This document shows, piece by piece, positions 1 through 61,580 of a stretch of DNA of 64,000 nucleotides. The first letter of the stretch is position 1; the number at the start of each line of letters is the position of its first letter. The translations under genes were made by a program, and so were the position numbers. Below the pieces are notes generated by a model. It saw only the letters and a list, made by a program, of their open reading frames with translations. It was not told the origin of the DNA and did not search any database. This DNA is from Eledone cirrhosa. Lineage: Eukaryota. The stretch lies in contig OZ024741.1 in the NCBI GenBank assembly GCA_964016885.1, forward strand, positions 346,332,001 to 346,396,000, read 5' to 3'.

Positions 1-102
1 GTGATACAACAAGCATATATTTTTATATCTGATATAAAGCACTCGACTAATATTTGGAGTAGATATACGATATTAATAAATGGAAACTATATTTATAAAA
101 CC

Positions 103-178
103 ATATTTATTTCATTATATATATTTCGAGGATACCAAGTTACATTATGGTATGCCTTCATCAGACAAAATACAATAT
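103..178 (-). ncRNA. type I hammerhead ribozyme, family A
   Basis: Minus strand: atattgtattttgt CTGATGA aggcataccataatgtaacttggtatcctc GAA ATATATAT A atgaaataaatat. Confidence 0.8.
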
Positions 179-1367
179 ATAACAGTTTTATAAATAGACA
201 TTGACGTACCCTTTTTAAAAATTGACCGTTGTTTTTGGAGGCCATACTAAATATATTAAACATATTATTTTAACTTAAAATATTCTATAATATTTTGGGA
301 TATTTTAGTATTTTGATATTTGTAGAATTCGTTTGCTTTTTAAGTTATATTGATATAATTATATTTCCAAAATATAATCCTTTTGAATTTTATATACTCA
401 ATTGTACTATGTCATATGTTGATTATATCTATATACGGCTAATGTATCTATATGTGTATGTTGACATACATATACATGTGTTATATGCTTTTTTATGATT
501 ATATGTCTGTCTGTATATATTCATGAGTGACGCGTGTATACCAATTGAAGATGCACACACATATCTATTCATGTATAGCTAAGAATTATGGATGTGAATG
601 TACAGGCTTACACATGCAGTTTTTGATTGCAGATATGCATAACTTAACAGCCATAAATGCATGAAAGTTAATCCTATATATTTATATATATATACTAAAA
701 ACTTTTAATTTTTAATTAATAACACAGGGAATGTATGGCAAAAAATCACTTATGCTTTGTATTATGTGTGGGAGTAGATATAATGTGTATTTTCTGAGTG
801 AGTGTGTATATATATATATTTATGTACCTTTGCCTATGTGTATGTAATATGCGATAGATAATCTCTCTAGCAATATATATATTTTATAATGTTTAAATTC
901 CAATTTTTAATATATTGATCTCAATTTTAAACTAAATATCTAATCATAATTAAACAATGTGTAATTTCTCATATTATATATCTATATTCCATTCATGAAT
1001 ATTAATATTTCTAATTTTATTTATGCTTTTCATCCCAATTGTTAACTCAACTTAATATGACATAACTTAAGGCTTTCGTTCTCTCACCCCTCTCTCTATC
1101 TCTATATGTCTCTCTCTGGATTTTTTTCTCTGTCTGATGGTTTGATATCTCCCCGTTATTTTCCTCTTTTCTCTTTTCTTTTTCTTTTCTTCTTTTTCTT
1201 TATCTATCTCTCCCTTTCTTTTCTCCACGTTTCTCTCTCTCCATCTTTTTACTTACTCTTAACACTATGACTTACTAAAGTAAACAAATCACTATCCTGA
1301 TGGCCTCCAAAAAACAACGGTCGATTTTTAAAAGGGGTACGTCAATGTCTATTTATAAAACTGTTAT

Positions 1368-2237: not shown

Positions 2238-2361
2238 GGAAAGTTATATTTAAATTGTTGTGTTACAACTAGTAAATATTTATAACTGATATAAAAGCAC
2301 TCGACAAATATTTGGAGTATATTTACAATATTAAATAAATGGAAACTATATTTATAAAACC

Positions 2362-2438
2362 ATATTTATTTCATTATATATATTTCAGGGATAACATATT
2401 AACAATATGCTATGCCTTCCTCAGACAAAATACAATAT
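2362..2438 (-). ncRNA. type I hammerhead ribozyme, family A
   Basis: Minus strand: attgtattttgt CTGAGGA aggcatagcatattgttaatatgttatccct GAA ATATATAT A atgaaataaatat. Confidence 0.8.
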
Positions 2439-3884
2439 AAACAGTCTTTTAGATAAATAGATTCGACATACCGTAACAACATCTACTTGCATTTGAGAAG
2501 GTTGATTTGGTTGTGACAATATTGTACACAGAGAGAAAGAAAGAGAGAGAGAAAGAGAGAAAAAGAGAGAAAAAAAGAAAGAAAGACAGAAAACGAAGAA
2601 AAAGAAAAAAAAGAAAAAGAAGAAATGCATGGAACAAAATAGAGAGATGGAAAGATAGATAAAGAGAAGAACTTCATGTAAAGAAACAGAAAGAGATATA
2701 TATATATATATAGAGAGAGGAAATAGAGATAGATACATACATAGAAAGCTAGGTAGTGGGACGAACTGTTGAATAACGTATCAATGATACATTTATTTAT
2801 TTATTTATTTATTTAGATCTAGTATTAATGTAAGGGAGATATATGGAGGGAAAACCAGCTGTTATATAGGGAGAGAAAAAAAATATAGAGAGAGAAAAAA
2901 AAAAAAAAAGAGAGAGAGAAAATTCAAAAATATCCAGACACAGGCGAGGCGTACAAACCTCTGTTTTAATGTAGAGGTACTAGTATTTACAAAACAAAAC
3001 CAGCCTCTGCATTGTAAATATCAGTATTCCTGAATGAGATATGTATCCACAACGTGTGAAAATTAATGATCTTATGTTTAGTTTTTTAAAAAATTCATAT
3101 GTTTATGTGATAATTACAAACATCTATGTGAATGTACATGATCAATTCTGCAAACCCTAAGTTCACGGAAAGTATTCTCAATGCGGTATAAAAATTTAAG
3201 TATACATATATGTGTATATAGAGTCAATATTACTATTTCTGTCTCTACTCTACAAGATTATCTATCAAGCAAAGATAGAGCAGATTTCAATATACTAATA
3301 AAAATAAAAATAAAAATATATCGGAAACAAAACTAAACTAAAAATAACAATAATACTAATAAGTAATAATAAAATAGAAAACTAAGAAATATTACGAAAG
3401 AATATTACATATTAAAAATATTACATATTAAAAAATTTTAAAAAATTTACATATTAAAAATATTAAAAAATAAAAATTAGGAAATACTACAGTAATAAAA
3501 ATATAGGAAATACTACAGTAATAAAAATAAAATAAACCACAAAGATCAACCCTTCAAAATTAATTGACAATATATTGCCAAGTTCATTATAAACATCAGA
3601 GTCGAAAAACAGATAAAGCCAAAAATTATCTATCAAATCGCATCTAGCAAAGATCATTTCAAAAAGTATAGGATGCCCAATTTGGTCTACATGTGTTCTT
3701 ATATTTAATATAGAAGTTTATCTAGTGTAACTTTTATTCGAAGTATTTGGAGCATCAACTTTTAGGATAGCTTAATTTTTCATGAAGAATGTTTAAATAA
3801 ATAAAATAAAAATAAAAAGAGTAAAAAGAGAATCAAAGATTTATCGGCTAGTTTCCCATATAATTATAAATCAAACTAAATATA

Positions 3885-5955
3885 CTACATTTTAAATTTA
3901 AATTTATATTTAAACGTTGAGTTTAATCTATGTTTGCAACAACTGAATAAATTTGTCCGTAGATTAAGGGAATTTTTAGATTTTAGTATAAAGAATATCT
4001 CCTCTGCGCAGAGGTCACATGTCTCAGAGGATGAATTAAAAGGAATCCCTCTTGAGACTATATTCCAAGCCGTCGAATATCTAACGTTATCTAGCATAAG
4101 TTGCCATAGTACGCCTGATAGTGCCGTTGAAGATGTTTTACTTGGATCTGTGAAAGAATTCTTGTGGTTATTATAGCGAAGTTTAAATTCCGTCGATGTG
4201 GAACCGACGTAGTTAAAAGAATTAGAGTCAGTATTCACATTACAATTGTATACTATATTTTTAACTAAGCAGTTGTTATTTAACGGACATTTAGATCTAT
4301 CTCTACAGTTACATTTGTTAACTTGTATATTATTTATGCTGTTATCACTAGGTTTTAAGTTCCTATTATTTATTCTATTGATATTTTGTGCTAAATTTTT
4401 GGTGGATGAGTAGGTTAATTTAATTGTGTCTATTGAAAATTGAGTGATATCTATGTGGTCTAGGGAAGCGATTATCAAGAGCTTTAAAAAATAGTTTAGC
4501 GATGTGGGTTTTAATGTTTAGTGAGAAAGGGGGGGCAAACCAAATTATGTTCCTAGTTCTATTTCTTTTTTGGCCTTTGGAATTATTGTAATGCTTTCTA
4601 TTATAGTTGTTAAGGATGTTGCCGTAATTAAAAAAGTTGTTACTTTGTTTAGTTTGTCTATCATTATCTATGTACACAATCTTATCAGCATATCCTGCTC
4701 TAGCTAATGCTTCATTGTAGTATTGGGCTTTTTCGTCGAAAATCTTTCTATTCGACGAGATCCTAGAGATACGTTTTTGGACAGAGTTTACTATAGTGTT
4801 TTTGACAGATCTGGGGTGGTTAGAGTTAAAGTTTACATAGTTTAAGTTTTCATTCAACTTGTGAAAAGGATAGTGAAGACATGTGTTGAGATTTAATGTT
4901 ATATCTAGGAAATTGACTATTCTATGGTTGTTTTCAATTTCTATTTTAAGATTAAAGTAATTAAAAAATTGTGTAATTTGTTTACATTTTCTATTTAGTT
5001 CAGAGTTATTATTATCAATAATTAAAAGCATGTCGTCTCTATATAAACCTGCGGTAGTACCGGGTATTTTCCTATGTAGCGAATTGATTAAAAATAAACC
5101 TACAAGGTCAGTTACCTGGGCTGAGTCGGATGATCCCATAGTAATGTCAAAATTGCTATCTCTATCTGCTCTGGTCCATAGTTGGTCATTAAATTCTATC
5201 AAAGTTTTCCTAGCCGATAATATAATATGCATTTCATTGCTAGTTAGGTCAGTATGTTTGAATGCGTAATTTAGTGCCTTATTTAGTAGATTAGGGGTAA
5301 TAGAAGAATAATAGTTAGCTATATCAAGTTGAATAAACTAATTATTATTGTTATATTTAATTCACTAAACATTAAACCACTCAACGACTTCTCCAGTTCC
5401 CTTCCACAAGCTCAGGTTAGATAAACAATCCAAGTTCTTAATTTGCCGTATCACCCTGTCAAGAATGTTTTTGCTTAATTTGCCCAGGTCCGATTTTGAT
5501 GGTGCGATCAATCTAACTGGCAGGTCATTTTCAAAATTCCGCTTGTGATCTTTCATATTGATCTTCGGTTTCCTGGGCACGAAAGGTTGTGTTCTGTTCT
5601 CAATTTCCAACTCGTGCATTATACAAGATGCTTCAACATTCATTTTCCCAAGCTCGGCCTTATCTGCTACCTTGTACTTTTTCCTCAGCTGTTTCAGTAT
5701 GAGGCCATTATACATGTCTTTCTGCACTCCATAGAGGTTGTTGGTCTTGTCAGATTTCACCAAGATCTTCTCAGTTTTCTCTAAGCTCTCAATGTTATCC
5801 TTAATGCCTTTCAGATATTCCTGGCCTTTGAAGTTTCTCTTGAATTTGACCCCTTGTATGATAGAAATTATATCGTTTTCAAAGTCAGATAAAAGTTTGT
5901 TAGGGGGTGGATTTCTTTTAGATTTGAAAACTTTGTTTAAGTCCGAGACATTTTC

Positions 5956-6613: not shown

Positions 6614-8416
6614 TTATTGTTCATTTAGCTTGGGTTTGAATTTATCAATAAAATTCTTTTCTTTGATTTTTCTCTTGATTTCACTTGGGCTGTGTAATTT
6701 GTAGAATGGGAATATTATAAATATTCCCTGACCACATGTTGCCAGGTGGCCGCTTAGGGGTATCTGACGGACATTTGGGTCTCTGATTTGTTGACGGTGT
6801 ACCCGTGCACGTTCCGATAGTGCATTTCCAGTTTGACCGACATATAGTTCTTCACAATTCGGGCATTTAATGCAGTAAATTAGATTTCTGCTTTTGCAGT
6901 TCATATTTGCATTTGTGAATATTTTTCCAGTTTTTGTTTTCATATATTGACCGGCGTGTATGGATTGACATGTGCCGCATCGATTATCATTGCATTTAGA
7001 TACAATGAATGATTGGTCTTTGTTGTTAAGGTCAAACTTTGCTTTTGTTAGCAATTGCTTCAAATTTTTTGGCTGTCTTTTACTAAGAGTCAAAGATCGA
7101 TCTGTGATTAAGCCTTTTAATTCATTACTTTGAGCAATGATCGGTAGGTTTGCTTTGGCAGTGTTGAAGATATTCTGGTGACATGGGTTGTGTGTCATTA
7201 TAAATGGTATGACCAGTTCTTGGTTTCTTCTTCTTTGGGTTGTTCTAAGTTGTTGTATAGGTATTTTTATAGCCCGCTGTATGCCATTTTCTATAAGTAG
7301 AGATGGGTATTTTTGTTTGAGCAAAAATTCTCTTAGTTCTGTTAGGCGTTTGTACCTGGTATTCGTATCTTCTACAATGGTACAAATTCTTCTGGCTAGG
7401 CAGTATGGGATGTTGCGTTTTGTATGAGGTGGATGGCACGACTTAAAATTCAGATATTGATGGGTGTCTGTGTGTTTATAATATATATCCGTGGTAATGG
7501 TGGTGTCGTTTTTGATTATCATTATATCTAGGAATGGTAATTTGGTCCTACTCATCTCTTTTGTGAATTGGAGAGATGGGTGTAGGTTATTCAGGAGGAT
7601 ATTGAACTCATCCAGAGTATCTAGAGATTCTGTCCAGATGATGAAACAGTCGTCAAGGTATCTCTTCCAAGATTTTTCAATGTACTTTCTAAAGTCAGTA
7701 CTATATTTTTCCTCTATTTCTTGGTAGAGTTGTTGTTCTAAGTATCCCATTACAGAGTTCGCGTAAACGGGAGCAAACTTCGTTCCCATCGCTGTGCCTC
7801 TAATTTGGATGTAATTCTTTCCATTGAAGAAGAAAGTGTTGTTTTCCAGAATAAGTTTAACTGCGTCTAATATAAATGGCGCTGTGAATCTAATGGGAAT
7901 CACTTCTCTATGTTTTTCCACCCAGTATTTAACCGCCTTTATTCCTAAATCATGTGTAATGTTGGTGTAAAGGCTTACCACATCAAAACTGAGTAGAAGT
8001 GAATTCGTTTCCGTGGTTTTGGGAAGATGGGACAGGAAGTCGATATCATCCCGGATGAAACTGGGTATGTGAATACATAGTGGTTTCAAAATAATGTCAA
8101 CAAAATTGCTTAGACGGTGAGTGGGGCATGTTGGACCAGCTATAATAGGTCTAAGTTTTAAGTCTTTTGGGTGTAATAATTTAATGTACTCACTGTTTTG
8201 TTCTCTTACTGCCAGTTGTATTTCTTTTGACTTGTGAACTTTCGGTAGGCCATACAGGTTGCTGGGTTTCGGCTCAAAATTGGTGATGTAGTCTCTTTCC
8301 TTATCAGTAAATGAGTTGTGGTATTTTGAAGCCAGGTTGTTGATCTTCTTCATGATGTTGTGGTCTATATTTGACGGTATTTCATGATAGAATGTTGTGT
8401 CTTTCAGTTGTTCCTC
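6614..8416 (-). CDS. PLE reverse transcriptase plus GIY-YIG endonuclease (N-terminally truncated, about 600 aa, open)
   Basis: [41 protein letters not shown]-x4-C-x2-C linker, [20 protein letters not shown]. The upstream part of the 790-aa ORF is microsatellite. Confidence 0.92.
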
Positions 8417-8652
8417 ATATATGTATATATATATGTATATAGATATATGTATATATATATGTATATATATATGCATATATATATATGTATATATATATGT
8501 ATATATATGTATATATATATGTATATATATATATGTACATATATATATATGTATATATATATGTATATATATATATATGTCTATATATATGTATATATAT
8601 GTATATATATGAATATATATGTATATATATGTATATATATGTATATATATGA

Positions 8653-8686
<34 letters not shown>

Positions 8687-8845
8687 GTATATATATATAT
8701 GTATATATATATGTATATATATATATATATGTATATATATATGTAGGTATATATGTATATATATATGTATATATATATATGTATATATATATGTATATAT
8801 ATATGTATATATATATATGTATATATATATATTTATATATGTATA

Positions 8846-9457
8846 TATAAGTATGTACACGTACATACATATATGAATACAGACGTACAGTAGTATGTAT
8901 ATATATACATACATGCACACATATATATGTACGTATGGATTCACCGAACATTTATTATAATGCTCGGTGTGTTTGTAAACAAACATCCCGTATTAAGCCC
9001 TAGTATCCAGCAAACGTTGCTCGTTTGTTCAACACTGAGAAAGGAACTCTGTACTAGTTTCAAGCTTATTAGCTATCGTCAGCAACGTATAACTTCCTGC
9101 CAGATTGTTGAACGTATATACTTACCTTATTCATATTAACGGCTGAGTAGCCCAATTTGCATATCGAGTGGGTTAATTGGCCGGGTTCACCGAAAACGAT
9201 AAACGGAAAAAATGAAACAATATTTCATTTCCCACTCTTAGTACGGCTGTTACTTAAATATAAGTATGTACACGTACATACATATATGTATACAGACGTG
9301 TACTTACTTATATTTAAGTAACAGCCGTACTAAGAGTGGGAAATGAAATTTTGATTCATTTTTTCCGTTTATCGTTTTTGGTGCACCCGGCCGATTAACG
9401 CAATCGATATGCAAATTGGGCTACTCAGCCGTTAATATGCATAAGGTAAGTATATAT
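8846..9457 (-). mobile_element. non-coding HHR-bearing palindromic/partly tandem element (retrozyme-like), copy 1
   Basis: About 413-nt period (8849/9262) then fold-back near 9297; homologous to 60627-61580. Confidence 0.75.
9046..9088 (-). ncRNA. minimal type I hammerhead ribozyme, family C
   Basis: Minus strand: acgttg CTGACGA tagctaataagctt GAA ACTAGT A cagagt. Confidence 0.8.
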
Positions 9458-9459
9458 GA

Positions 9460-10206
9460 TGTCTGCTAGGTTCGGTGTAGTAGACAAGGATATTTTTATA
9501 ATGTTCCTATAGAGAATTTTTCTATGCCTATGGTTCTAAGGCTTCGAAGAACATCCGAGGTATGTTGGAGGCCACACTTCGAGAGTAGGGGGGGGGGGGG
9601 GGACCATAGGACGTTACAGTGGCGATTACGTGTCCTTGTACGTTTGCTACGGGTGGTTCCATCTAGGTGACCACTCTTATGTGTGTTAATGCGCAGTCCG
9701 GTGCCCCTTTCACTTCATGCTCGTGTGCACTCTTCCATGTTTATGTACAGGAAGATGTTGGTTGGAAGGCTTTGGTAGTAGGCCGTCGCCTTTGTTGGTT
9801 TTGTAATAGGGGAATAGTTCGAGCAATCTACAGTGGTCACCGTCGCCGTGGTCGTGATATTTAGTGCGGTTATCTATTCTATTATATCCGACTTCAACGA
9901 GGTCGCCGCGTGATCGGTTATAGGTATGATTACTATAACGTTCGTTTTATGAGGGGGAGGTTCTAGAGCTAGCGTTACGGATGTAGGAAATTCCTCGGTT
10001 AAAGCCGGCGCTTATCAAGGCCCTATTGTATTAAACTGTCGCTTGAGATACTATAGACTATGGAGTTGAGAGTCTACTTAGGGTAGATGGAGGCATAATT
10101 AATATAAGAGAGGTACTCTTCAGGCTTATGGTATGCCTTGTATAAGCCCGTACTCAACTCCAGGGTCACGTCCAGGAAGTTGACAACCTTGTGGTTGAGG
10201 TCCATA
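9460..10206 (-). pseudogene. degenerate PLE fragment (Hydra-like RT thumb/linker)
   Basis: Minus-strand translation gives KVVNFLDVTLELSTGLYKAYHKP and RNVLW.PPPYSRSVASNIPRMFFEAL, homologous to the 4420-5232 protein; contains stops. Confidence 0.7.
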
Positions 10207-12963: not shown

Positions 12964-14415
12964 TGTGTGTATATATATGTATATATATATGTATATATAT
13001 GCATATATATATATGTATATATATTTTTATATATATATGTATATAAATATATTCATATATATATATATATATATATGCATATATATATATATATTAATAT
13101 TTGATGAACATTTACATGTTTTAGTTGCAATTGACTAATAAAATCGCTAGAATGAATTATCTTAATTCAACAACATAAAGTTTGCCTGTACGATCTAAAA
13201 AATAATAAATCAATACTCACAGACTCATATGGGCAAAAAGCCTTGGTACCTAGACACGTTTAAAATTCAAAATACAAACTTTTTCCGCAGATCGGTCAGA
13301 ACTTCAAACTTCAAACATGTTTCACAAAGGATGGTATAATAGTGAAATAATTAATTAATTAGTAGTGAGTTAATCAAATTGTGATGTTGCTGTTCCACTC
13401 ATATTTTCTATTTAATTTTGGTTTTAATTCTTTTATGCTTACTGCCTCTGTAATTTGCCTAAACATTGCGTCTTTTCTGTGTGTGGATTCTATTTTTATT
13501 TCTATGTTCTCTAATCTACCCCTGTGTTCTATCTTAGCATGTTGGTAGAGCACAGATGATTCTTTATTATCTTGGAGGTCTCGCCAGTGTTCATTTATTC
13601 GTTCCCCTATACTACGAGCTGTCTCACCTATGTACACTATATTTTTGTTTCTACATTGTCCTTCTGTACATCTTATGCTATACACTACATTTCTAGTTTT
13701 ACAGTTAATATGTGGGCTTATTTTACAGGTTATACATTTCTTATCTATACATGAGGGTCTTTGGAACGGGTATGTTTTGCTAATAAGTGTTTTTACGGAG
13801 GTACCTGGTCTTTCTACTATCTTAATATTGAGATTATGTTTATTTAGGGCCCTTCTAAATTTGTAGGCTAGTTCGCCTCTAGGGGTTTGTTCATCAATGT
13901 TCATCAATACAACCCCTAGAGGCGAACTAGCCTACACATTTAGAAGGGCCCTAAATAAACATTATCTCAATATTAAGATAGTAGAAAGACCAGGTACCTC
14001 CGTAAAAAACTTATTAGCAAGACATACCCGTTCCAAAGACCCTCATGTATAGATAAGAAATGTATAACCTGTAAAATAAGCCCACATATTAACTGTAAAA
14101 CTAGAAATGTAGTGTATAGCATAAGATGTACAGAAGGACAATGTAGAAACAAAAATATAGTGTACATAGGTGAGACAGCTCGTAGTATAGGGGAACGAAT
14201 AAATGAACACTGGCGAGACCTCCAAGATAATAAAGAATCATCTGTGCTCTACCAACATGCTAAGATAGAACACGGGGGTAGATTAGAGAACATAGAAATA
14301 AAAATAGAATCCACACACAGAAAAGACGCAATGTTTAGGCAAATTACAGAGGCAGTAAGCATAAAAGAATTAAAACCAAAATTAAATAGAAAATATGAGT
14401 GGAACAGCAACATCA

Positions 14416-14630
14416 CAACTTACAATTAAGGACAAAATGAAAACACACACAGGACAAAATGAAAACACACACACACATAGAACAAACAACTTACAATTAA
14501 GGACAACATGAAAACACACACAGGACAAAATGAAAACACACACACACATAGAACAAACAACTTACAATTAAGGACAACATGAAAACACACACAGGACAAA
14601 ATGAAAACACACACACACATAGAACAAACA
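14416..14630 (+). repeat. about 71-bp tandem repeat, three units, in PLE 3'UTR
   Basis: Unit acaacttacaattaaggaca..catagaacaa; single copy in the 60 kb relative. Confidence 0.85.
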
Positions 14631-15904: not shown

Positions 15905-15905
<1 letters not shown>

Positions 15906-16037
15906 GTTTTAATATAGATGAGATTCTACAGGACTAGAACTGTTTCATTCATTAGAAATCATCAGGAATCAGATTCCTGATGATTTCTAATGAATGAAAC
16001 AGTTCTAGTCCTGTAGAATCTCATCTATATTAAAACT
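15905..16037. repeat. perfect palindrome of about 66-bp arms made of two back-to-back HHRs
   Basis: 15905-15970 is the exact reverse complement of 15972-16037. Confidence 0.92.
15971..16021 (+). ncRNA. type I hammerhead ribozyme, family F (mirror copy 15921-15970 on -)
   Basis: agattc CTGATGA tttctaatgaat GAA Acag ttctagtc ctgT A gaatct; GUA site. Confidence 0.88.
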
Positions 16038-16103
16038 GTTATACTCTGCTATGTATTGAGTACCTTACTTACTGTGGTTACCTCCGATTCAACCCGGAAT
16101 AAC

Positions 16104-17696: not shown

Positions 17697-19800
17697 CTAG
17701 CAGTTTAGCCCGGCCTTGCTCGGGTTTGTTCATTTGCTATGAAAAGTTACATACAGGTAAACGTGGCTTGAAAGCGAATAAGCTTATCAATTAACTGCAT
17801 AAAGCAGTTGAACCGTTTATTAAAAGTTACGAACCAATTAGCATTTTGGTCAATCAATGATGGGTTAATAATCTTCCAATAGCGAATTTAGTAGACCAAA
17901 GTTGCAAGATCGTGGTCCTGATGCCGCTGGGTGTCAGATCTGTCCGCCATGGGATACCCTACCAGGAAATAGTGTTCCAGAGGGCATAGCTCCAACACCT
18001 GCACCAACATCTATAGCACCTCTTTGTAGACGATATTGCGTGTCATCCCTTCAGGAGAGTAAGCAAAAAGTCCATTCCTGCTCCCTACGCGAGAACAGGC
18101 AACATAAAGTTGGCCATGGGAGAAGTATGGCTCCCCCAAATAGATGCCCGCCACCGACAATGTTTGCCCTTGTGACTTGGACATGGCAAAACATGGTCTC
18201 ACTGGGAATTGGGATCGCCGGAAATCGAACGGGATATCTGACGCCGAGGGGAAAAGGTTTATCCTTGGAATGAAAATATTCTCCCCACTTCCGCATCCCG
18301 TTACTATGTTGGCCTCAATCAAGTGGGGTGTCAGTGACTTGACGACCATGCAAGTACCGTTGCACTGCTTTGGTGGACGCAAGTTCCTTATTAGCATAAT
18401 GGGACAGCCAACCCTAAGCTTAATAATGTGAGGTGGGCGCCCTGGGGCTCAAGGGAATTTAATAACTCAACCGGATAATCAACGATATCGTCGGGGTCTG
18501 ACGTCCGGTCGATAGATTTGAAGATGTGCTCTTTACCGGGAATCTTCTCAATCAGCTGCTCGTTAATAAAATTAACCATGGTATTTTTCGGAGCAAGGAT
18601 GTCTTTTTCGCTGAGCCAATTGAGGGTTTTAAAGTTAGATGAGACATCAGAAAAAACTGCTTCCCAAATATCAGAAGGGCTGCTCACAATGTTGCACAGG
18701 GAGTCGATTGCTATGCCGCCCTTGTCATCAGCAGGGACCTTGTCCTCATCAAGTGCTAAAATGTTCTGAGCAAATGCTGCACCCTTGTGTGCCATTGTGC
18801 ACTCATCCCAAACAATGAGGCAACATCTTTTGAGAACCAGAGCTTTGTATAAACTCTTGCTGATATTGCATGTTGGTGTCTCAGTTTTTAATAAATCCAA
18901 AGGGAGTTTAAAGGTTGAATGTGCTGTCCTGCCTCCCGGCAGCAAAGTAGCAGCGATCCCGGACATTGCAACGGACAACGCAACTCTTTTTCCTGATGAA
19001 TCTTAGCGAGAATCAATTTCGTGGGGGGGTCCGTTTTTTATTTGGGGGGATCCGTTTTTTATTGGGGGGAGGGGGGGCGTTTTTTAATTTGGAATCCGTT
19101 TTTTATTTGGAGGGTGTCCGTTTTCATGGGGGTGGGGCGTTTTTTATTGTGTATGGAGGGGTCGATTTTTTTATTGGGGGGGTGTCCGTTTTTATTTGGG
19201 GCGTGGGGGGGGGGGGGGGGGGCGTTTTTATGAGGGGGTGATCCAAATGTATCGAACTGGTAAAGTTTGAAGAAACCAGCCAGAGTGTTCTCTTTTGGAT
19301 CGGCGTCAACTTGGTGACGGTTTGGTCCGTAAAGTAAACCCTTTGCCCATTTTCCAAATGTACCGCATGCTGTACGATGGCGGGGTACCGTTGGTGTAGG
19401 GGTAAACCAAATAGGCGCCAAAAAGCTTCATTGCTACTGATGGATGTACCGCCCCGCCAGGTATTCTGTGACCTCGTCCCTGTTATTTTCAGCTTGAAAT
19501 GCGAACATTGCGGCATCAGAGCCCTTATTTACATATTTGCATATGTATTTTATCGACTTGACGGAGTTGCAAAACTCAACGTTGATGTGGGCGTTGAACA
19601 TCTTCAAGAGAAGCGGGCAGTAATGTGAGCATGTGGCAGCCCTCGTTTTTGCCATTCGACAGTGAACATGTCACATTTTACAGCCCCAATTACTTGACCG
19701 TTTTTTATTAAAGCCATGAGTTTAGCCTGTTTCAGTCTGAACACTGGCAATGAGGTCATGTCTGTTCGAATAATTTTGCCCAGGAAAAAGTTCACTGGTT
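17697..19800 (-). mobile_element. Helitron, internally deleted and decayed
   Basis: Rep motifs VEWQKRGLPHAH, KYICKYVNKG; Pif1 helicase ATLLPGGRTAHS, IVWDE, QFPV..KSQGQT, FSHGQLYVACSRV; 3' hairpin cccgagcaaggccggg then CTAG|T at 17697. Confidence 0.9.
19020..19240. repeat. G-rich degenerate minisatellite (ggggtccgttttttatt) inside the Helitron
   Basis: Direct read; replaces the Rep-helicase junction. Confidence 0.75.
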
Positions 19801-20283
19801 ACATTCCGATTCATATGTTATATGAAGTGTTATTTTGCGGGTTGTTATTTGCAATAAGCCGGTTGAAATGCCCCAGATAAGCCGTATGTCAATACGGAAC
19901 GCTCATTACGGAACGCTCCACTGCAGTGTTGTCATATAGGGAGTGAAGAGCAACAGAGAGAATAAAGCAGTTAAATTATAGAGAGAGGGAATATACGGAA
20001 CGCTCCATTTGATCATAAACATTGTTTCTCTCTATGCAGTGTTGTCATATAGGAAGTGAAGAGCGACAGAGAGAGTAAAGCAGTTAAATTATAGAGAGGG
20101 GGAATGATCATGATCGATTTCTGCCCTTATTGTTGATGGATTTGAAATTTCTTTGCCTCAGGACCTTTTCCTGACCAGAAGCAATAATTGTCCCGACGTT
20201 GAATAAAATCTGTTGGAAATTGTGGACGTGCATATGTTACAAACCTTAACAAACACATCCTCAGATTTATATATTTAGATATA

Positions 20284-23200
20284 CTAGTAGAAGTGCCCGG
20301 CGTTGATTGGCGTTTAATTGCTTTAAAGTACTTTGAATGATTCCACTCAATTATGAATATTGAGGCATTGAAAGTAAATACGGGTAAGTTTGAAAATATA
20401 CAACAATAGCATCTACTCACTATCAGACCGGCAAGACTGCAGTGGTACTGAATAGAGGAGTCACAACACTTCTATGTAGACCAGATCTTTTGTTCTGCCT
20501 TTGGGCGCAAGTATGAATAAGTCCTGCTTGCATCCCACTCTTGAGCATGTGACGTATAATTGGCCGTGTGAGAAGCACGGCTGGGCCAAATGCAGGCGTG
20601 CCGTTGATAGCGTTTGGCCTTGGGACTTGTTGATTGACATCGCGAAGCAAAGTTTAACGGGGAATTGAAGTCGGCGCAGAGTACAGGGGCATTCCGCACC
20701 TGATGGAGTTAATGGTATTCTGGGTATGAAAACGTTTTCTCCAGCGCCGCAGCCCATGAGAATTGTGGCTTCAATTACATGCGGCAGGAGGTTTCTTACC
20801 ACTAACCGTGTTCCGTAGCAGAGACGCGGCGGTTCCAGGTTCCTCAACAGCATGACTGGTGTCCCAACTTTGATGCGCAGTTCATGAGGTGGCAGTCCAG
20901 AGAGGTCCAAGGAATTGAGGAATTCTGTTGGAAAATAGTCAACCTCATCTTTGTCCACCACTTTGTCCACATATTTGTAGGTACGGAGGTTTCCAGGGAT
21001 GTGTTGCAGAGAGTCCTCATTGCTTTTTGCAACTGAGGCATTTTTGGGAGCCAATATGGCTCTATCGCACAGCTAACTCGTGTTTTTATAGTTGGTCGCC
21101 ATATCGAGACAGACAGAGGCTGTGAGGTCGTCAACAGTGTCGGCAACGGGGGCTACTTGCGAGACTGCCATATCTCCAACTGCATCTGAAGGTGCAGTGC
21201 CGTCACCAACTGTTAAGAGGTCCTTTGAGAAGTCGGCTGCTGAGTGGTCGCCGAGCAATTGGGCTCTCATGTTTGTTGTGAGGGTCAGGATTGTCACTTC
21301 CTGCCACAGGGGAGATGACTTAATGCAAGTCCCCACACTGTCGGCCCTGGTGGCTTTTGGAACAACTGGAAGAGTTTGTCGAAAATCGCCAGACAGGAGT
21401 AGAGGTACTTCTCCCATCGGCCGGTTGCATTCCCTGATGTCTCGTAGGGTCCTGTCTAAGCCTCAAGGGACCCTTTATAGGCCATTGTGCATTCGTCCCA
21501 CCCACACAACTAGGTGGCATCTTTTCAAGACTTCAGCTTTGTGAGAGTCCTTGGTGATGTTGCAGATTATTGTGTCGTCTGAAGTCGTGTTGAATGGCAG
21601 TTTAAATGCGGAATGAGCTGTTCTACCTCCGGGCAGCAGAGTTGCAGCAATGCCAGAAGAAGCAACAGCCAGGGCGATTCCTTTCTGCTGTCGCAATTTG
21701 GGGAGGGGAAGTTTATTGACAAATATTTTACCAGTTCCTCCTGCGGCGTCCAAAAAGAAGATACCTCCTCTGCGTTGACGAATGGAAGTGCAAACTGTGT
21801 CATACACCTGCTGTTGGTTCTGCAACAATTTTGGCTCGTTTTCGTTGATGAACAGTTCGAGGTTGTGGACGTCGGCGGCAGTTTCCTGAATTATGCCCGT
21901 CGGAAGTTTGTCCGAGCCCGTTCGCTGAACTTTTGGCAGTCCATAGAATGGAAGGTCATTTCCGCCGGCAGTTAGGATTTTGTCCTCGATGTCAATGAGA
22001 ACATTGTTGAAGAATTCGTCGCTGAGTCGTACGTCGGAATGAGGGAGTAGGAGTTGTTCTTGGTGTATGTAGTCATCGGAAAAGTCCTCTTTGTATTTCT
22101 CCCATAATGATGCAGGGTCGCTTAACTCGCATGTATGCAGTAGCACCGCAAAGAGTTGCCGAAGAGTTCGCGCTGAGCGTATTGTAGCTGCATCCGCCAA
22201 TGTCGCATCCCACTGAGAGCCATCTTCCAGTAGACTCCGTCTAAGGCAGGCTGCGCGGAATGAAGTACAAAGCTCTCCATTGATTGTTTTCAGATCGTCG
22301 AAAGATGTCGGTCCTACCACGTCATGCAGTAGAAGGCGGAGATAAAAGCATTCCTGTTGGTTAGGATGAATGGTGTACACTCTCCCAAGGGTAGGGGACA
22401 TTTTAATGTCTGGATGTCCCTCGACGGTTGTCCTTTCACCTTTCTTAACCAAATTCTGTTGTCTATGTTCCATGTGTAGTATGATGGCACCTGAAAGTAG
22501 AAGATGGTCTTGGCGAAGGGATCGTTTCGGCATAACTTAAAAAATTCCGTAAGTGTGGTGTCCTTGGGTTCCTCTGCTATATCAGCAGCGGTGCACTGCC
22601 AACTGTTTGATTGGGGGTAGTTATGGTGTATTGCAAAGTGGAAGAATCGCCAGAACGCTTCATTGCTGCGGATGTATCGGCCGACCTGGTATCGAGTTAC
22701 TTCGTCTCGGTTGTTCTCCATTGTAAGACCAAAGGACGCAGCAGCGGACCCCTTATTTATATACTTGCAGACGTACTTTATCGATTTGACGGAGTGGCAG
22801 TATTCAACGTTAATGTGGGCGTTAAACAATTTAAGCAGAAGTGGGCAGTAGGGTACAATGCACCGGTTGTCGACGTTGTGATGTGGTGTTTTCGCAACAA
22901 TTCCTCCATCCGCTGGCTCCCTGCCGCGGTATGATGGATACGTTTCTCGGAGGAATGGCCTAGGATACCTCTTGGTGCACCTTCTTTCTTTAATGCATGG
23001 AGAATTCATGTTGAGAGCGTTTCCGCATGGCCCATGAACCATGTGAGCAGTGACGATGTTGTGGAGTTCTCTGTCCAATTTTGGGTCGGGTATTTCTGCT
23101 GAAATTATGCTGTCAATGATGCTTGCGTTGATTTTCGTTATCAGCCAAATGGGTAGGTGAGCGTGTGGCAGGCTTCTATTTTGCCACTCAACGGTGTATA

Positions 23201-24873
23201 CGTAGCACCTAACAGGTCCAAAGGCCTTACCTGATTTTAGGAGTTCAATAAGTTTTGTCAACTTCAAATGAAAGAGACTCGTGCCGTAAGATCGTGTCTG
23301 TCTGACGCCCTTTGTCCGGGGAATAATTCCGCGGTAATTTCATTCCACTTATGGTTGCATGTTGAAGTGATGAAGAGATCCGGTCTGCCGTAGAGACGCA
23401 CGTTCGTCATAGCATCCTGTGTGCGTTCACTCATGTATCGGGGACTCCCAATGAAGGTCGACGGAAGGATACAATGTTTTCCTAGGTTCTCGGGATCGAC
23501 GTCATTCCTTACTCCATCCCGTAAGTGAATGTAGCTGTCCGAACGAAGGCGTGCTTGATTGTTCCTTATGTAGCACAACCTTTCAGATTCCATCTTTGCG
23601 CACGCGTCTACAGCAAGCTGGTTGAAGAGTACTCTTGCACGGTGGAGTTGGTTAAAGCAGCATTCGCGGACCATGAATCGGTAGGTGTAGAATTGCATAG
23701 AGGAAACAGTTTTATTGCTATTGCACAAAGGAATTCCAAAGTGGTATCCATCGTCACCGAATGGGAAAAGTAGGGGATATTGGAATGCGTCGTAGGACCT
23801 ATACGTCTCGCTGATCTGTTGCAGACTATTGTCCCTACACTGAAGTATGATGTCCCGCTTGTACTGTTCTCCGTGAAGAAGCACAGCTATTTCATTGCAC
23901 GTGGGAGTGTTAAAACGTCTGGCGTGGGTGCCTGGTGGTTTCCTGTCAGCGTCGATTATAACAGCAAAATTTGGCAACGGAGCAGCCTCTAATGCGCTTT
24001 TAAAACTGCGAATGTAGTTGTTGTTTTCGTGCAGCATTCTCTTCTGGAGTTGCAACAGAATTTTCATGTCTGTGCCAGGCGAAATTGAAGCGTGTCGTTC
24101 CGCTTGGTCTAAATAGTCAGTGATAAAGTATAGCTGTAGGAACTTGGGCTGTCCGTCTGTCGTAGGCAGTAGCGAACCGATTCTGTGGTAAATTTGTCCT
24201 CGAACTTTAAAGGTAGGCATGAAGCCGTCCTCGCGTATGATGTTAGCTCCGAAAGAGGTCATTTGAGAGGCAGCGTTGTATCTCCTGGAACATCGAAGGA
24301 AGTGTTCCGACTCCGCTGTGGCACCGGTCAGTAGAGACTTCAAAGGTTGTGGTGATTCCTGTAGAGAAGGCAGTTTCACTTTGCCGCCAGAGCAGCACAT
24401 CCCTGAAGTCCCCCCAGGCCATTTTTTTGCCCGACAATATTGGCAAATGGCATACATAGATCCAATCTGAACTTCTGGCATCAGTGCATAGTTTACTGTT
24501 GGGTCATAGGGGAAAGCCTTATGAGACCACTGTGTGCAACTGATCCTCTGTGTACCTCGTTTAACACTCCTGCGGAGTGCGTTGGCGTTTAGCCTTTGTA
24601 ATTGAATTTGCTCAGTCTCTGATGCGCGAACGGAAGCTGTTGAAGCGGCGTCCGTACGTCGACGTCTGGAACGCTGCCCTTCGTCCTCGGCAGCACGTGA
24701 CGCAGCGGTGGAGGCCGCATTTTTGCTTCGTCGTCGAGAATGTTGTTCATCAATTTGCGCTGCACGTGCAAATGCAGTTACAAATGCATTTTCGGAAAGG
24801 CGGATGGTCCTTTTTATTCTGTCTCGGTTGCCCGGGTAATTGCATTTCGAGCTGCATTTTGTGACAATATACC

Positions 24874-24907
<34 letters not shown>

Positions 24908-26963: not shown

Positions 26964-27040
26964 ATATAATGTTATATATATATATTTAGTTGTAGTTAAT
27001 AGAATTATGGCTACATAGTAGAAAGTTCATTAAATACATT

Positions 27041-27226
27041 ATAATTGTTTCTACTTTCGGCACAAGGCCAGCAATTACCCAGTACATTACTGGTACTTTA
27101 TTTTATCGACCTCGTAAGGATGAAAGGCAAAGTTAACCTTGGCGGGATTTGAACTCAGATCGTAAAGGGACTTAACTATGCTGGAAAGCATGTCCAACCC
27201 TCTACCAATTCTGCCAATCCACCGCC
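27041..27226 (-). mobile_element. tRNA-derived SINE (octopod-like family)
   Basis: B box gagttcaaatccc, conserved body ctttgcctttcatcc..gtcgataaaataaagtacc; about 9 copies in window. Confidence 0.85.
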
Positions 27227-27681
27227 CTCATTATAATGATACAAGATCAGCATGAAAAAGATATCACTCTTACTCACATTTCCTTTCATTAAGTGATCAA
27301 TTAACTGGAATTTATAAATATTAAGTCATTATAAATGATCCCATATGGATGAAGTGAAATTTGAAATAGGCATTATTATAGCTGACATTGAAGCGGGAAT
27401 TCAACGTTATAATTCGCATCACTGTTATGAACTTGCATCATTGTTATGAAATCTTACGGAAGAACAACTTTGGCTGTTACATTCTGCGGTTTCAAAGGCC
27501 AATATTTTTATCTCCAAATATTGTTTGTAAAAAAAAAAAAAATTGCCTAATATGTTTAAAATACTAATGTCTTTCTCACCGACTGGAGACAAAGGAAAAC
27601 GAATCAGTTTTCAGGACCCCGGATGATTTAGCCATAGGGTACTATATACATTTCAACAGAACCATTTTATAAATAGATAAT

Positions 27682-27870
27682 AATTGTTTCTACTTTTGGC
27701 ACAAGGCCAGCAATTACCCAGTGCATTAGTAGTACTTTATTTTATCGACCTCGTAAGGATGAAAGGCAAATTTAACCTCGGCGGGATTTGAACTCAGACC
27801 ATAAAGGGCTGTAACTCTTTGCTGCAAAGCATGGCGTCCGACTCTCTACCGATACTGCCAAACGACCGCC
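27682..27870 (-). mobile_element. tRNA-derived SINE with 14-bp TSD
   Basis: TSD tataaatagataat at 27668-27681 and 27871-27884. Confidence 0.9.
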
Positions 27871-28589: not shown

Positions 28590-28749
28590 GAAACACACAG
28601 ATACATGCGGACACACACATATATACATGAATGCATCCGCACCCAACTGTGAGTTAAGGGTGCCAACTTCACCGATGTTGCTCAATGAATGACTGGGACA
28701 GACCAATTCAGTTTGAACTAGACTGAACCAGTATCAGAGTTAAAAATAC

Positions 28750-29209
28750 ATTATGAAGAGAGAAGAAACATTTAGATATAATTAGTAATAAAATGTATCA
28801 TACCTAAACTGTTCCTAAATTCCTCGACTACGTAGTTTCGTGGCATAAACAAAAACAATATATCAAAGATATAGAGTCCCTGCGAGGTCTGCCGACTTAT
28901 CAAGAGGATACCTCATTTTACTAGTCTCAAGAACGCGTCTACACGACGTGAGAAAGAATCCCAAACGTTATATCGCGTGACTATCTCCCCCTCCGCCTTT
29001 TGGGATTCTTTCTCACGTCGTGTAGACGCGTTCTTGAGACTAGTAAAATGAGGTATCCTCTTGATAAGTCGGCAGACCTCGCAGGGACTCTATATCTTTG
29101 ATATATTGTTTTTGTTTATGCCACGAAACTACGTAGTCGAGGAATTTAGGAACAGTTTAGGTATGATACATTTTATTACTAATTATATCTAAATGTTTCT
29201 TCTCTCTTC

Positions 29210-29214
<5 letters not shown>
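28750..29214. repeat. long inverted repeat (216-bp arms, 33-bp spacer) with an HHR in each arm
   Basis: 28750-28965 is the reverse complement of 28999-29214. Confidence 0.93.
29056..29143 (+). ncRNA. type I hammerhead ribozyme, U3-A8 core variant, family I (mirror 28821-28908 on -)
   Basis: tcctc TTGATAA gtcggca..tgccac GAA ACTACGTAGT C gagga; stems I-III pair; GUC site. Confidence 0.78.
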
Positions 29215-29250: not shown

Positions 29251-31775
29251 GATATTAAATAAATGGAAACTATATTTATAAAACCATATTTATTTCATTA
29301 TATATATTTCAGGGATATCATATTAAAAATATGTTATGCCTTCTTCAGACAAAATACAATATATTACAATGAAGCGTTAGCTAGAGCAGGATATAGTGAT
29401 AAAATTATGTACATAGATAATAATAGACAAACTAACCAAAATAACAACAATTTTAATTACGGCAACAACTTTAACAACTATAATAGAAAGCATTACAATA
29501 ATTCCAAAAGCCAAAAAAGAAATAGAACTAGGAATATAATATGGTTTGCCCCCCCCCCCCCCCCCTTTCTCACTAAACATTAAAACCCACATCGCTAAAC
29601 TATTTTTTAATGCTCTTGATAATCGCTTCCCTAGAACACATAGGTATCACTCAATTTTCAATAGACATACTATAAAATTAACTTACTCATCCACCAAAAA
29701 TTTAGCACAAAATATTAATAGAATAAATAATAGGAATTTAAAACCTAGCCAAAATACCGATAATAGCATAAATAATATCCAAGTTAACAAATGTAACTGT
29801 AGAGATAGATCTAAATGCCCGTTAAATAACAATTGCTTAGTTAAAAATATAATATACAACTGTAATGTAAAAACGGACTTAAATTCTTTTAACTATGTTG
29901 GTTCCACCTCGACAGAATTTAAACTTCGCTATAATAACCACAAGAATTCTTTCACAGATCCAAGCAAAAAATCCTCAACATCACTATCAGGCCTACTCTG
30001 GCAACTTAGGCATGATAACGTTGGATATTCAACGGCTTGGAATATAGTCTCAAGAGGGATTCCTTTTAATTCATCCTCTGAGACATGTGACCTCTGCGCG
30101 GAGGAGATATTCTTTATACTAAAATATAAAAATTCCCTTAATTTACGGACAAATTTATTCAGTTGCTGCAGACATAGATTGAACTCAACTTTTAAATATA
30201 AATATAAATTTAAAATGTAGTATATTTAATTTGGTTTATAATTATTTATGAAACTCGCCGATAAATCTTTCGATTCCTTTTTATTTTAAACATTCTTCAT
30301 GAATAATTAAACTACCCTAAAAGCTGATGCTCCAAATATATCGAATAAATTTTACACTAGATAAATTTCTATATTAAATATAAGACCATCTGTAGATCAA
30401 ATGGGTATCCTAAACTTTTGGAATGTTTTCTGCTAGACAGGATTTGGTAAATAATTTTTGGTTTTGTTTGCTTTTGATTCTGATGCTTATAACGAACTTG
30501 GCAATATATTGTCAATTAACTTCGAAGGGTTGATCTCTGTGGTTGATTTGCGGGGCATACTATGTTTTATTTTTATTTTAATATTTTTAATATTTTTAAT
30601 ATTTTTATTTTTAATATTTTTTTGATTTTTTGTTTTTTATTTACTTTTTGTTTCTGATATTTTTATTGATATATTGATATCTGTTCTCTATTTATGCTTG
30701 AACGATAATCATGTAGAGTAAAGACATGTATAGTATTGTTAAAATTAATGTAGACTCTATATATATTTGTGTGTATGTACACATATATGTATACTTAAAT
30801 TTTTATAGCACAATGGGAATGTTTTCGTGTGAAATAGGAATTTGCAGAGCTGATCACGTGAATTCACATGGATGTGTATAGTATAAAATCTGGGATAACC
30901 TTCTATTTTATCTCAACTCTAATTATAAACCTAGGAATTTTAGACTAGACATATGATCATTATTTTTAACACATTATTGATACGTGTCTCATTCATGAAT
31001 ACTGATATTTACATTATAATGCCTGGTTTATACGAATTGATATTTTTTTACATTGATGAAACATAGTGTTTTAAATCTGCCTCGTTTTTGTCTGGATATT
31101 TTTCTTTTCTCTCTATGTAACGGCTGTTTTCTCTCTTAACCACATATATCTCTCTCTACATTAATACTACAGCTAAATAAATAAATAAATAAATAAATAT
31201 ATCATTGATACATCATTCAACTGGTGCCCAACTACCTAGTTTCTTTCTCTCTATCTCTATCTATATCTATTTCTCTATATTTTCTCTCTCTCTCTCTCTC
31301 TCCTCTCTTCTCTCTCTCTCTCTCTCTATCTATCTCCCTCTGTGTTTTTTCCTCTCTCTATATATCTCTCTCTGTTTCTTTACATGAATTTCTTCTCTCT
31401 ATCTATCTCTCTATATCTATCTCTTTCTATTTAGTTGCATGCATTTCTTCTTTTTCTTCGTTTTTCTTTCTTTCTTTTTATAACTGTCCCTAATATTTTT
31501 TCACTACCAAATCAACTTTTCAAATAGAAGTCGAAGTTGAAAGGTATGTCGAATCTATCTATTTATAAGACTGTTTATATTGTATTTTGTCTGAAGAAGG
31601 CATAACATATTTTTAATATGATATCCCTGAAATATATATAATGAAATAAATATGGTTTTATAAATATAGTTCCTATTTATTTAATATCGTAAATATACTC
31701 CAAATACTTCTTGAGTGCTTTTATATCAGTTATAAATATTTACTCGTTGTTAACCCAACAATTTAAATACAACTT

Positions 31776-43434: not shown

Positions 43435-43694
43435 ATAGTAGTATCGGTAGAGAGTCGGACACCATACTTAATAGCAAAGAGTTACGGCCTTTTATGATCT
43501 GAGGCTGTGGATTGGCAGTATCAGTAGAGAGTTGGACACAATGCTTAGAAGCAAAGAGTTACGGCCCTATATGATCTTAGTTCAAATCCCGCCGAGGTTA
43601 ACTTTACCTTTCATCCTTACGGGGTCGATAAAATAAAGTACCAGGAATGTACTGGGATAATTGCTGGCCTCTTGCCAAAAGTAGAAACAATTAT
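43435..43694 (+). mobile_element. SINE with duplicated 5' head
   Basis: Partial head 43435-43502 followed by a full copy. Confidence 0.85.
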
Positions 43695-44396
43695 TTTATA
43701 GTAGTTCTCCGTGACCTTAGCCTTTCATCTTTCCAGCCTCGAAAAAATAAATAACTGCAAATTATAGATGTTGAAGTAATCAACTAGTCCTTTCCATTAA
43801 CTTTTAGCCCTCAAAATCAAATGTAATTATATTCACAGAATGTAATCGATGGTATGCCATATGAAATATCTCTTTTTATATTTTTGTATATTTCTCTATA
43901 TTTTGAGTTCAACTCCTTCGCAGCTAAAATGAGATACAGAAGCAAAACATCAATAAATGTATGGCCTTATGAAAAAGAAATGGACTACTATATGTTGAGG
44001 AATTTGCTAAAATCCGTATCACAAAAGCGAAAAGTGATGCACAGGCTTTCGGATTCGCTTATAAGATGAATAAAGAGCAAAATATGAAGTACACAGGATT
44101 TTCAAATTGTTCCTTTGTAAAATCATATATCAAAATACTACGTACCCTCGAATAAATCTAGCGATTGAAAAGAGGGAGAGTTTATGTGGTCATTCGAACG
44201 TGTGAAAAAGCAATTATACAGAGACACAACATAAAGCAAACAGAAAAGGCAGCTTGGGAACAACGAAAACATAAAACAAAAAAACAATGAATAGGTTAGT
44301 AAATAGGATTTTCATAGGTGGGTTACGTTAGAGAGTACTTGACAAACATTTATTAACAAATTCCCTACATTTAAATGTATTTATGAGAGCACAGGC

Positions 44397-45759: not shown

Positions 45760-45943
45760 AATTGTTTCTACTTTTGGCTCAAGGCCAGCAATTATCCAGT
45801 ACATTACTGGTACTTTATTTTATCGACCTCGTAAGGATGAAAGGCAAAGTTAACCTCAGCGGGATTTGAACTCAGACCGTAAAGACACGTAACTATACTG
45901 GAAAGCATGGCGTCCAACTTTCTACCGATACTGCCAATTCACC
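45760..45943 (-). mobile_element. SINE inserted into pLTR
   Basis: TSD ccagaaataat on both sides. Confidence 0.88.
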
Positions 45944-46012
45944 CAGAAATAATAACAGAACACACTCACTGTTTGGTTGGTTTTCCCTTCTGTATCTTTT
46001 AGGAGGAACATA

Positions 46013-60626: not shown

Positions 60627-60630
<4 letters not shown>

Positions 60631-61576
60631 GAAAAAAATGAAACGATATTTCATTTCCCACTCTTAGTACGGCTGTTACTTAAATATAAGTATGTACACG
60701 TACATACATATATGTATACCGACGTACAGTAGTATGTATATATATATATACATATATGCACACATATATATATGCACGTATGGATTCACCGAACATTTAT
60801 TATAATGCTCGGTGTGTTTGTAAACAAACATCCCGTATTAAGCCGTAGTGTCTAGCAACCACCGTTGCTCGTTTGTTCAACACTGACAAAGGAACGCTGT
60901 ACTAGTTTCAAGCTTGTTAGCTATCGTCAGCAACGTATACCTTTCTGCCAGATTGTTGAACGTATATACTTACCTTATGCATATTAACGGCTGAGTAGCC
61001 CAATTTGCATATCGAGTGGGTTAATCGGCCGGGTGCACCAAAAACGATAAACGGAAAAAATGAAACAAAATTTAATTTCCCACTCTTAGTACGGCTGTTA
61101 CTTAAATATAAGTAAGTACACGTCGGTATACATATATGTATGTACGTGTACATACTTATATTTAAGTAACAGCTGTACTAAGAGTGGGAAATGAAATATC
61201 GTTTCATTTTTTCCGTTTATCGTTTTCGGTGCACCCGGCCGATTAACCCACTCGATATGCAAATTGGGCTATTCAGCCGTTAATATGCATAAGGTAAGTA
61301 TATACGTTCAACAATCTGGCAGGAAGGTATACGTTGCTGACGATAGCTAACAAGCTTGAAACTAGTACAGCGTTCCTTTGTCAGTGTTGAACAAACGAGC
61401 AACGGTGGTTGCTAGACACTACGGTTTAATACGGGATGTTTGTTTACAAACACACCGAGCATTATAATAAATGTTCGGTGAATCCATACGTGCATATATA
61501 TATGTGTGCATGTATGTATATATATATATACATACTACTGTACGTCGGTATACATATATGTATGTACGTGTACATA

Positions 61577-61580
<4 letters not shown>
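60627..61580. mobile_element. non-coding palindromic retrozyme-like element, copy 2
   Basis: Arms fold back around 61120-61145; about 422-nt period in the left arm (60655/61077); HHR on each strand; (TA)n on both sides. Confidence 0.8.
61331..61373 (+). ncRNA. minimal type I hammerhead ribozyme, family C (mirror 60894-60936 on -)
   Basis: acgttg CTGACGA tagctaacaagctt GAA ACTAGT A cagcgt; GUA site. Confidence 0.88.

Follow-up and report, generated by a model that had tools for sequence, protein, structure and literature searches.

Two places in the window, the whole 64-kb stretch of DNA analysed here, carry the same head-to-head fold-back, which raises the question of whether such a junction is handed on from copy to copy or made again at each insertion. 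An earlier reading, made from the letters alone (the sequence-only reading), had proposed that the whole palindrome is copied as a fixed unit.

Two loci with one fold-back junction

Locus A (8846–9456) is the reverse complement of 60963–61582 at locus B, with an identity of about 95%, much as the sequence-only reading had it (about 60960–61580). In the self-BLAST and repeat scan of the window, run with TA tracts masked, 60963–61504 aligns to 9456–8918 with 95.4% identity across 542 nt, and the alignment continues past this block, via the tail, up to the TA tract. A 24-nt junction pattern matches exactly two places in the 64 kb, 9287–9310 on the minus strand and 61109–61132 on the plus strand, and has no match in 100 shuffled sequences with up to three mismatches allowed. 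The common fold-back seen earlier is thus confirmed, and so is the difference in flanks: none of the three flank comparisons between A and B gives a BLAST match. A segmental duplication was rejected, as unique flanks are shared in none of the three comparisons. No match to the repeated unit was found in the 64 kb beyond loci A and B (blastn with word size 7; nhmmer). A scan of GTDB genomes for exact patterns returned zero loci for the junction and zero for the ribozyme core, as expected for an animal repeat.

The earlier statement that both copies end at the same point holds for the sense arm, where the base before (TA)n is identical (8849 and 61579), and fails for the inverted arm, which is 157 nt long in A (to 9456) and about 490 nt long in B (to 60628).

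A 422-nt unit and its arms

Both loci are assembled from one ORF-less unit of 422 nt with a GC content of 0.38, described here in the ribozyme-sense direction (Table 1). The longest ATG ORF of the unit encodes 51 aa, and blastx against 126 PLE (Penelope-like element) proteins yields no match at E ≤ 1. The predicted folding of the unit stands out from that of shuffled sequences, with z = −7.8 when linear (0 of 100 shuffles) and z = −7.0 when circular.

The sense arm is made up of a 38-nt tail, the unit, a second tail and (TA)n, with the 38-nt terminal redundancy spaced at 422 nt. The inverted arm begins at an ACGT within the tail; in B it spans one complete unit and a tail, then extends 60 nt into the next unit before reaching (TA)n. 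This run-on of 60 nt carries sense-arm-type alleles and is present at one end only. The fold-back junction is the 4-nt self-complementary ACGT itself, which closes an imperfect 28-nt hairpin of the tail; ACGT occurs five times per unit. Three of the four outer ends adjoin (TA)n, the fourth (the end of the A inverted arm) has a short TATATA, and all four lie on TA microhomology. A MITE or foldback DNA transposon was rejected because the outer ends do not match, the offset amounting to 60 nt in B and to about 280 nt in A.

Table 1. Positions of the two palindromic copies, their parts and the immediate neighbours of locus A
Feature	Positions	Strand	Details	Basis
A left neighbour	6614..8413	-	5'-truncated PLE ORF (RT and C-terminal GIY-YIG)	
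Degenerate (TA)n tract	8414..8848	.	adjoins 3' end of A sense arm; likely target	
Locus A	8846..9456	-	asymmetric palindromic copy: full sense arm and 157-nt inverted arm	
A sense arm	8849..9299	-	tail, 422-nt unit body, tail	
A terminal tail	8849..8886	-	38 nt, repeating the first 38 nt of the unit; T variant at 8881	
A hammerhead motif	9046..9088	-	predicted cut near 9052; core starts 9082	core motif
A junction-side tail	9262..9299	-	T variant at 9294; 28-nt imperfect hairpin closed by ACGT...ACGT	
A fold-back junction	9296..9299	.	4-nt self-complementary microhomology ACGT	
A inverted arm	9300..9456	+	arm-specific T at 9304, 9350, 9379; ends at internal TATATA	
A right flank	9458..10196	-	decayed PLE RT-thumb/linker fragment	tblastn
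Locus B	60628..61579	+	complete palindromic copy, (TA)n both sides	
B inverted-arm run-on	60628..60687	-	60 nt into next head-to-tail unit	
B middle tail	60688..60725	-	G variant at 60720	
B inverted arm	60688..61123	-	whole unit; arm-specific T at 61115, 61069, 61040	
B inverted-arm hammerhead motif	60894..60936	-	predicted cut after 60900	structure scan
B fold-back junction	61120..61123	.	ACGT	
B sense arm	61120..61579	+	G variant at 61125 and 61547	
B sense-arm parts	61120-61157; 61120-61541; 61542-61579	+	tail; 422-nt unit; terminal tail	
B sense-arm hammerhead motif	61331..61373	+	predicted cut after 61367	motif and structure scan

A predicted hammerhead in the unit

The unit carries a hammerhead motif that the sequence-only reading had overlooked, one per arm at both loci. 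It is a minimal type I hammerhead motif: the core is conserved, stem I has 6 bp, stem II has 4 bp and one unpaired base, and stem III is short and palindromic. These features match the minimal type I hammerhead as presented in the available text of PMC4209133. A structure-aware scan finds 15 hammerhead loci in the window, compared to 0–1 in each of 30 shuffles, and recovers both B motifs. In A the core is intact, stem I is broken by a substitution and the fold is weaker; the same scan misses this motif because of the weakened stem I. An Rfam search of the whole window at E ≤ 1 has no hammerhead among the 150 matches listed of 172, and all 150 fall below the gathering score. All but one of these 150 are miRNA-hairpin models (the other is a snoRNA), which were rejected as reflecting the hairpin. 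Rfam on the 121-nt focus gives four matches, none of them a hammerhead. The identification is thus a prediction based on our own scan and on the comparison with the available part of PMC4209133.

Candidate splice sites also occur in the unit: a 5' donor at 61292 that resembles the consensus, and an acceptor, rich in pyrimidines, whose end is at 61384 (plus strand). The other arms have them at the same place. The candidate intron of ~90 nt (61292–61384) would enclose the hammerhead; introns adjoining hammerheads in PLE pLTRs are mentioned in the accessible text of PMC4209133.

Alleles near the junction follow the arm

The tree of left versus right arms that the sequence-only reading had suggested was built on the 156 nt common to all four arms (sense and inverted, A and B). 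Within 80 nt of the junction there are three informative sites that group by arm and none that group by locus. The sense arms carry A, A and C (9267, 9221 and 9192 in A; 61152, 61198 and 61227 in B), and the inverted arms carry T, T and T (Table 1). The arm-specific variation reported earlier is real and extends to three sites instead of one. One of the three is a CpG transition, the other two being A-to-T transversions. The four-arm tree is arm-wise with a UFBoot value of 94; the locus-wise tree is rejected by the AU test (p = 0.022) and not by the SH test (p = 0.08). Private changes in the 156 nt number 3, 3, 3 and 1 across the four arms. When independent sharing is simulated, two common changes have P = 0.0012 and three appear in 0 of 60,000 runs. 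The common source proposed for the junction is thereby supported for the junction-proximal inverted segment.

If every insertion had primed itself afresh by folding back onto its own sense arm at the hairpin of the tail, the alleles common to A and B would be coincidental. The junction is indeed the exact ACGT closure of this imperfect hairpin, and self-priming at such palindromes was proposed in PMC3846280; applied to an insert's own arm, the idea as worded in the available text predicts identical arms at insertion, i.e. arms that group by locus. The arm-wise sites, three to none, reject such a fresh fold-back, as do the AU test and the simulations, and the B inverted arm has 60 nt that are missing from the B sense arm. 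This explanation is already largely refuted and is very improbable. The earlier premise that PLE inversions arise anew at each insertion is itself softer than stated: in the part of PMC3846280 that is available, junction palindromes are consistent and one copy possibly gives rise to an identically organised one.

Ranked by DNA energy, with multi-branched folds of up to 70 nt admitted, the junction is 83rd of 169 candidate fold-back sites (−3.4 kcal/mol), and a role as a thermodynamic hotspot is unsupported. As the junction is no favoured fold-back site, inheritance explains its reuse better than a hotspot does. Assembly or read-chimera artefacts, i.e. fold-back chimeric reads or collapsed repeats, are barely credible. 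AT-microsatellite palindromes are hard to assemble and the window does contain a 99.8% inverted duplication, but the loci differ by ~5%, the arms of B differ from each other, and the differences between arms are common to both loci.

Distal arms and the tail variant follow the locus

Distal to the end of the A arm, the 265 ungapped columns hold 14 private changes in A and one in each B arm, which suggests that the near-identical distal arms of B have been rebuilt or homogenised. A model in which neutral decay is equal and conversion absent is rejected (18 versus 4 private changes, p = 0.004). The B arms differ at 10 of 432 nt, and these differences cluster on the junction side (7 in 156 nt versus 3 in 276 nt, Fisher p = 0.04; change-point permutation p = 0.027). 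A post-hoc split (6 in 80 versus 4 in 355, p = 0.004) overstated the clustering, the corrected tests giving p = 0.027–0.04, and a split at the ribozyme cut is non-significant (p = 0.11).

A G/T variant in the tail, 2 nt from the junction, tracks the locus and not the arm, both tails of A having T and the three of B all having G. The t/g difference that had been noticed at the junction is therefore real, without being a lone substitution. Linear inheritance of the junction tail would need either a parallel change (p about 0.01–0.045) or conversion. The tail variant and the unequal distal changes together contradict the proposal that the whole palindrome is one fixed unit.

Surroundings and other inverted elements in the window

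PLE fragments embedded in TA tracts are spread over the window. The PLE ORF to the left of A has molluscan proteins as its closest named relatives among the 120 matches listed of 1638, and its element has a hammerhead of its own at 6230, unrelated to that of the unit. The unit was considered as the pLTR of this PLE (6614–8413) and rejected, as the 3' region has this different hammerhead and no similarity. An ORF at 6614–8992 runs across the TA tract into the A arm and was treated as chance. No partner pLTR for the unit was found in the 64-kb window.

The decayed PLE to the right of A has its best tblastn match at 10196–10044 (47% over 51 aa, E = 2e-10), with weaker pieces down to 9534. It stops at the edge of A, before any endonuclease domain. 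That this fragment is also cut at the A edge suggests that one deletion shortened both, and it weakens the alternative that the short arm of A is a natural RNA 5' end.

Another PLE family in the window (1–245, 1300–1476, 2243–5949, 29254–31771, 47608–47994) has a C-terminal endonuclease and a hammerhead, and includes inverted pieces at 1–245/1300–1476, 29254–29363 and 47608–47754. Its inner inversion ends differ at all three independent loci, which lends support to a common origin of the A/B junction. On the reference copy, its inverted insertions end at 2328–2331 versus 2243–2247, the arm at 1–245 being cut by the window start; the long and short ends are thus ~85 nt apart, which exceeds the usual tail of 30–40 nt. 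The pairing of a long end with a short end, common to B and this family, supports a retroelement reading.

The only repeated junction in this family is in an inverted duplication of 29.2–32.1 kb and 35.4–38.6 kb. The duplicated segments (29213–32063/35477–38649) are 99–100% identical and include both the PLE and its flanks, and may represent a recent duplication or an assembly artefact. The one clear duplication at the DNA level in the window carries its flanks at 99–100% identity and is unlike A/B in kind. A further explanation is a one-off ectopic copy of a palindromic insertion, made at the DNA level by break repair primed in TA tracts, with a single later conversion that homogenised the distal arms of B and a deletion that shortened A. 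The identical junction and the arm alleles would then come free; junction-side private changes are similar in most arms, all four ends lie on TA microhomology, DNA-level duplications are present in the window, and the known loci are only two. Such a copy is nevertheless distinctly unlikely: A and B have no unique flank in common, their decay is too unequal without conversion, conversion would have to spare the junction side, and the concerted tail variant would still be unexplained.

Several other fold-backs lie in the window. A 1048-nt palindrome at 13376–14421 (97.9%, 23-nt spacer) covers a PLE endonuclease region and has relatives at 59545–60150 and 61702–62364, arranged differently. A small fold-back with a 1-nt spacer and TA tracts on each side is found at 15905–16098, its center just upstream of a hammerhead motif on both strands (15965 and 15977). 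At 28598–29214, between TA tracts, there is a palindrome (28750–29214) with 216-nt arms and a 33-nt spacer, single in the window and present on one side only of the inverted duplication; a separate hammerhead motif is located at 28325 and its duplicate at 38596. The window also holds a GC-richer block with ORFs (18000–24900), presumably Helitron Rep/helicase fragments, as named from their motifs, and GC-rich fragments resembling the RT of non-LTR retrotransposons (47991–49900), not PLE-like by eye. A SINE-like repeat of ~190 nt, which may resemble a cephalopod SINE, is present in many copies (27040–27230, 27680–27870, 43440–43700, 45760–45950, 54240–54600 and 55950–56340).

A junction core that may be inherited

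The best explanation, held tentatively, is that a shared source hands on the junction core, that this core is retro-inserted into (TA)n by a Penelope-like protein in trans, and that the long arms are rebuilt or homogenised. A and B are palindromic copies of one ORF-less hammerhead-motif unit on which a Penelope-like RT/endonuclease would act. The source RNA likely includes the junction together with at least the ~80 bases of the inverted arm that lie next to it, and the transcript would extend from a short inverted leader across the junction and through the sense arm. With nicked (TA)n DNA as its starting point, reverse transcription may proceed from the tail end back across the junction; the self-complementary cDNA could then snap back and re-copy its own sense arm, by which the distal inverted arm would be remade. 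We infer here an RNA intermediate, a promoter, a partner protein and the snap-back; later conversion from arm to arm, in place of the snap-back, would give the same pattern. An inherited junction core combined with a remade distal arm would make the long arms locus-specific. A appears to be the older copy and has probably lost most of its inverted arm by deletion.

The strongest rival, itself rather unlikely, has the join remade at each insertion at a hard-wired ACGT, between two cDNAs from differently marked templates. The source would be a tandem RNA in which the start of the first unit differs from later ones, and both target strands would prime cDNA. One cDNA would extend to the RNA 5' end and give the inverted arm, with its fixed alleles and its end at ACGT; the other would circle a single-tail monomer or circle and give the sense arm with identical tails, after which the two would anneal at ACGT. 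This scheme accounts for the concerted tail variant, the near-identical distal arms, the head-to-tail run-on with sense-type alleles and the ACGT microhomology. Parts of it have parallels: in the available text of PMC11167929 the Poseidon protein cuts both strands, extends them and has two internal start sites, and animal retrozymes form circular monomers according to the accessible part of PMC7229834. However, both events must choose the same ACGT out of five per unit, at a site that is no strong fold-back (rank 83 of 169), and the same two templates must go to the same arms twice. Furthermore, hammerheads of the unit's family are nowhere paired head to tail at a locus in the window, and Poseidon, in that same text of PMC11167929, needed no HHR cleavage, with unprocessed RNA as its main substrate.

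Inheritance of the junction core also has several observations counting against it. The tail variant is locus-wise, the present sense arm of B could not have served as template for the 60-nt run-on, and only two loci are known, with no source copy or partner PLE in the window. The SH test, the CpG transition among the three sites, the Rfam search and the split at the ribozyme cut count in the same direction. A long hairpin RNA is, moreover, expected to be a poor template for RT. A further claim, somewhat unlikely, is that of a palindromic, retrozyme-like family that perpetuates itself: the junction and inverted leader would be heritable in the transposing RNA, and cDNA snap-back would rebuild the long arms each round.

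On one side of the junction the alleles are common to the loci, and 2 nt away on the other side there is a concerted variant specific to the locus. In a family of many copies, such markers would directly tell inherited segments from rebuilt ones. Were the junction heritable, the arm alleles would record the template strand, sense or antisense, for inverted pLTRs, and genome sequence would be enough to answer the question of how these arise. Should there be no more than two loci, they are an ordinary duplicated fragment.

Comparison with known systems

Judged from its sequence, the A/B element is built like a non-autonomous Penelope-like (retrozyme-like) element. An autonomous EN+ PLE has a single ORF with a PLE RT and GIY-YIG, whereas ORFs here are at most 51 aa and have no blastx match. 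The marks of a non-autonomous PLE are found instead: a partial, pLTR-like tandem (the 38-nt redundancy and the 60-nt run-on of B), a head-to-head inverted 5' copy with a junction palindrome, an extension at one end in B, 60 nt long, a type I hammerhead motif of the minimal kind as predicted by the sequence/structure scan, and an AT-microsatellite target.

The closest likeness is to EN+ PLEs with an inverted 5' pLTR, as portrayed in the available parts of PMC3846280 (Adineta vaga Pen2, Pen2a and Pen3a) and PMC8557442 (scheme). In common with these, the A/B element has a partial head-to-tail tandem, a head-to-head inverted copy that is 5'-shorter and overlaps the direct copy, a junction palindrome, a hammerhead in the repeat, an AT-rich target and a one-end extension; one long and one short end are described for PLE tails in PMC8557442. 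Unlike them it is without an ORF, its extension is 60 nt where 30–40 nt is typical, and it has the additional 38-nt terminal redundancy. PLEs are thus already described as having inverted 5' copies with palindromes at the junction, tails on one side, hammerheads and a (TA)n target. Arm-specific alleles common to two loci are unreported in the available text of these two papers, and no report of such alleles inherited across loci at a PLE inversion junction was found in literature that was mostly freely accessible, the accessible text of PMC13282606 offering nothing that bears on them. How tandem and inverted PLE ends form, and which strand is copied, is stated to be unresolved in the parts of PMC3846280, PMC8557442 and PMC11167929 available.

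ORF-less hammerhead units are likewise already described, as retrozymes. The animal non-LTR retrozymes (PMC7229834; bioRxiv 10.64898/2026.07.22.740005, both in the text available) resemble the unit in their short, non-coding, folding monomer with one type I hammerhead per unit and a head-to-tail run-on, and they are proposed to be non-autonomous PLE derivatives. A short structured monomer with a GC content below 45%, as in retrozymes, is found here too. By contrast, an active retrozyme has at least two consecutive head-to-tail units with complete hammerheads (bioRxiv 10.64898/2026.07.22.740005), and the A/B element has only 1.1–1.2 units head to tail with no two consecutive ribozymes, i.e. at most solo monomers. 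Its 422-nt monomer is longer than the 220–390 nt given in these two sources, and a term search of their available text did not find a head-to-head arrangement.

Poseidon of Anolis (PMC11167929, available part) has an AT-rich target of which both strands are nicked and extended, the biochemistry invoked here for A/B, and two internal RT start sites that define its tail. Unlike the A/B element it is autonomous, and the text is silent on the inheritance of inverted junctions.

The 5' inversions that L1 makes by twin priming resemble the A/B element in being head-to-head with microhomology at the junction. In L1 the inversion points differ between insertions, whereas in A and B the point and the alleles near it are common to both.
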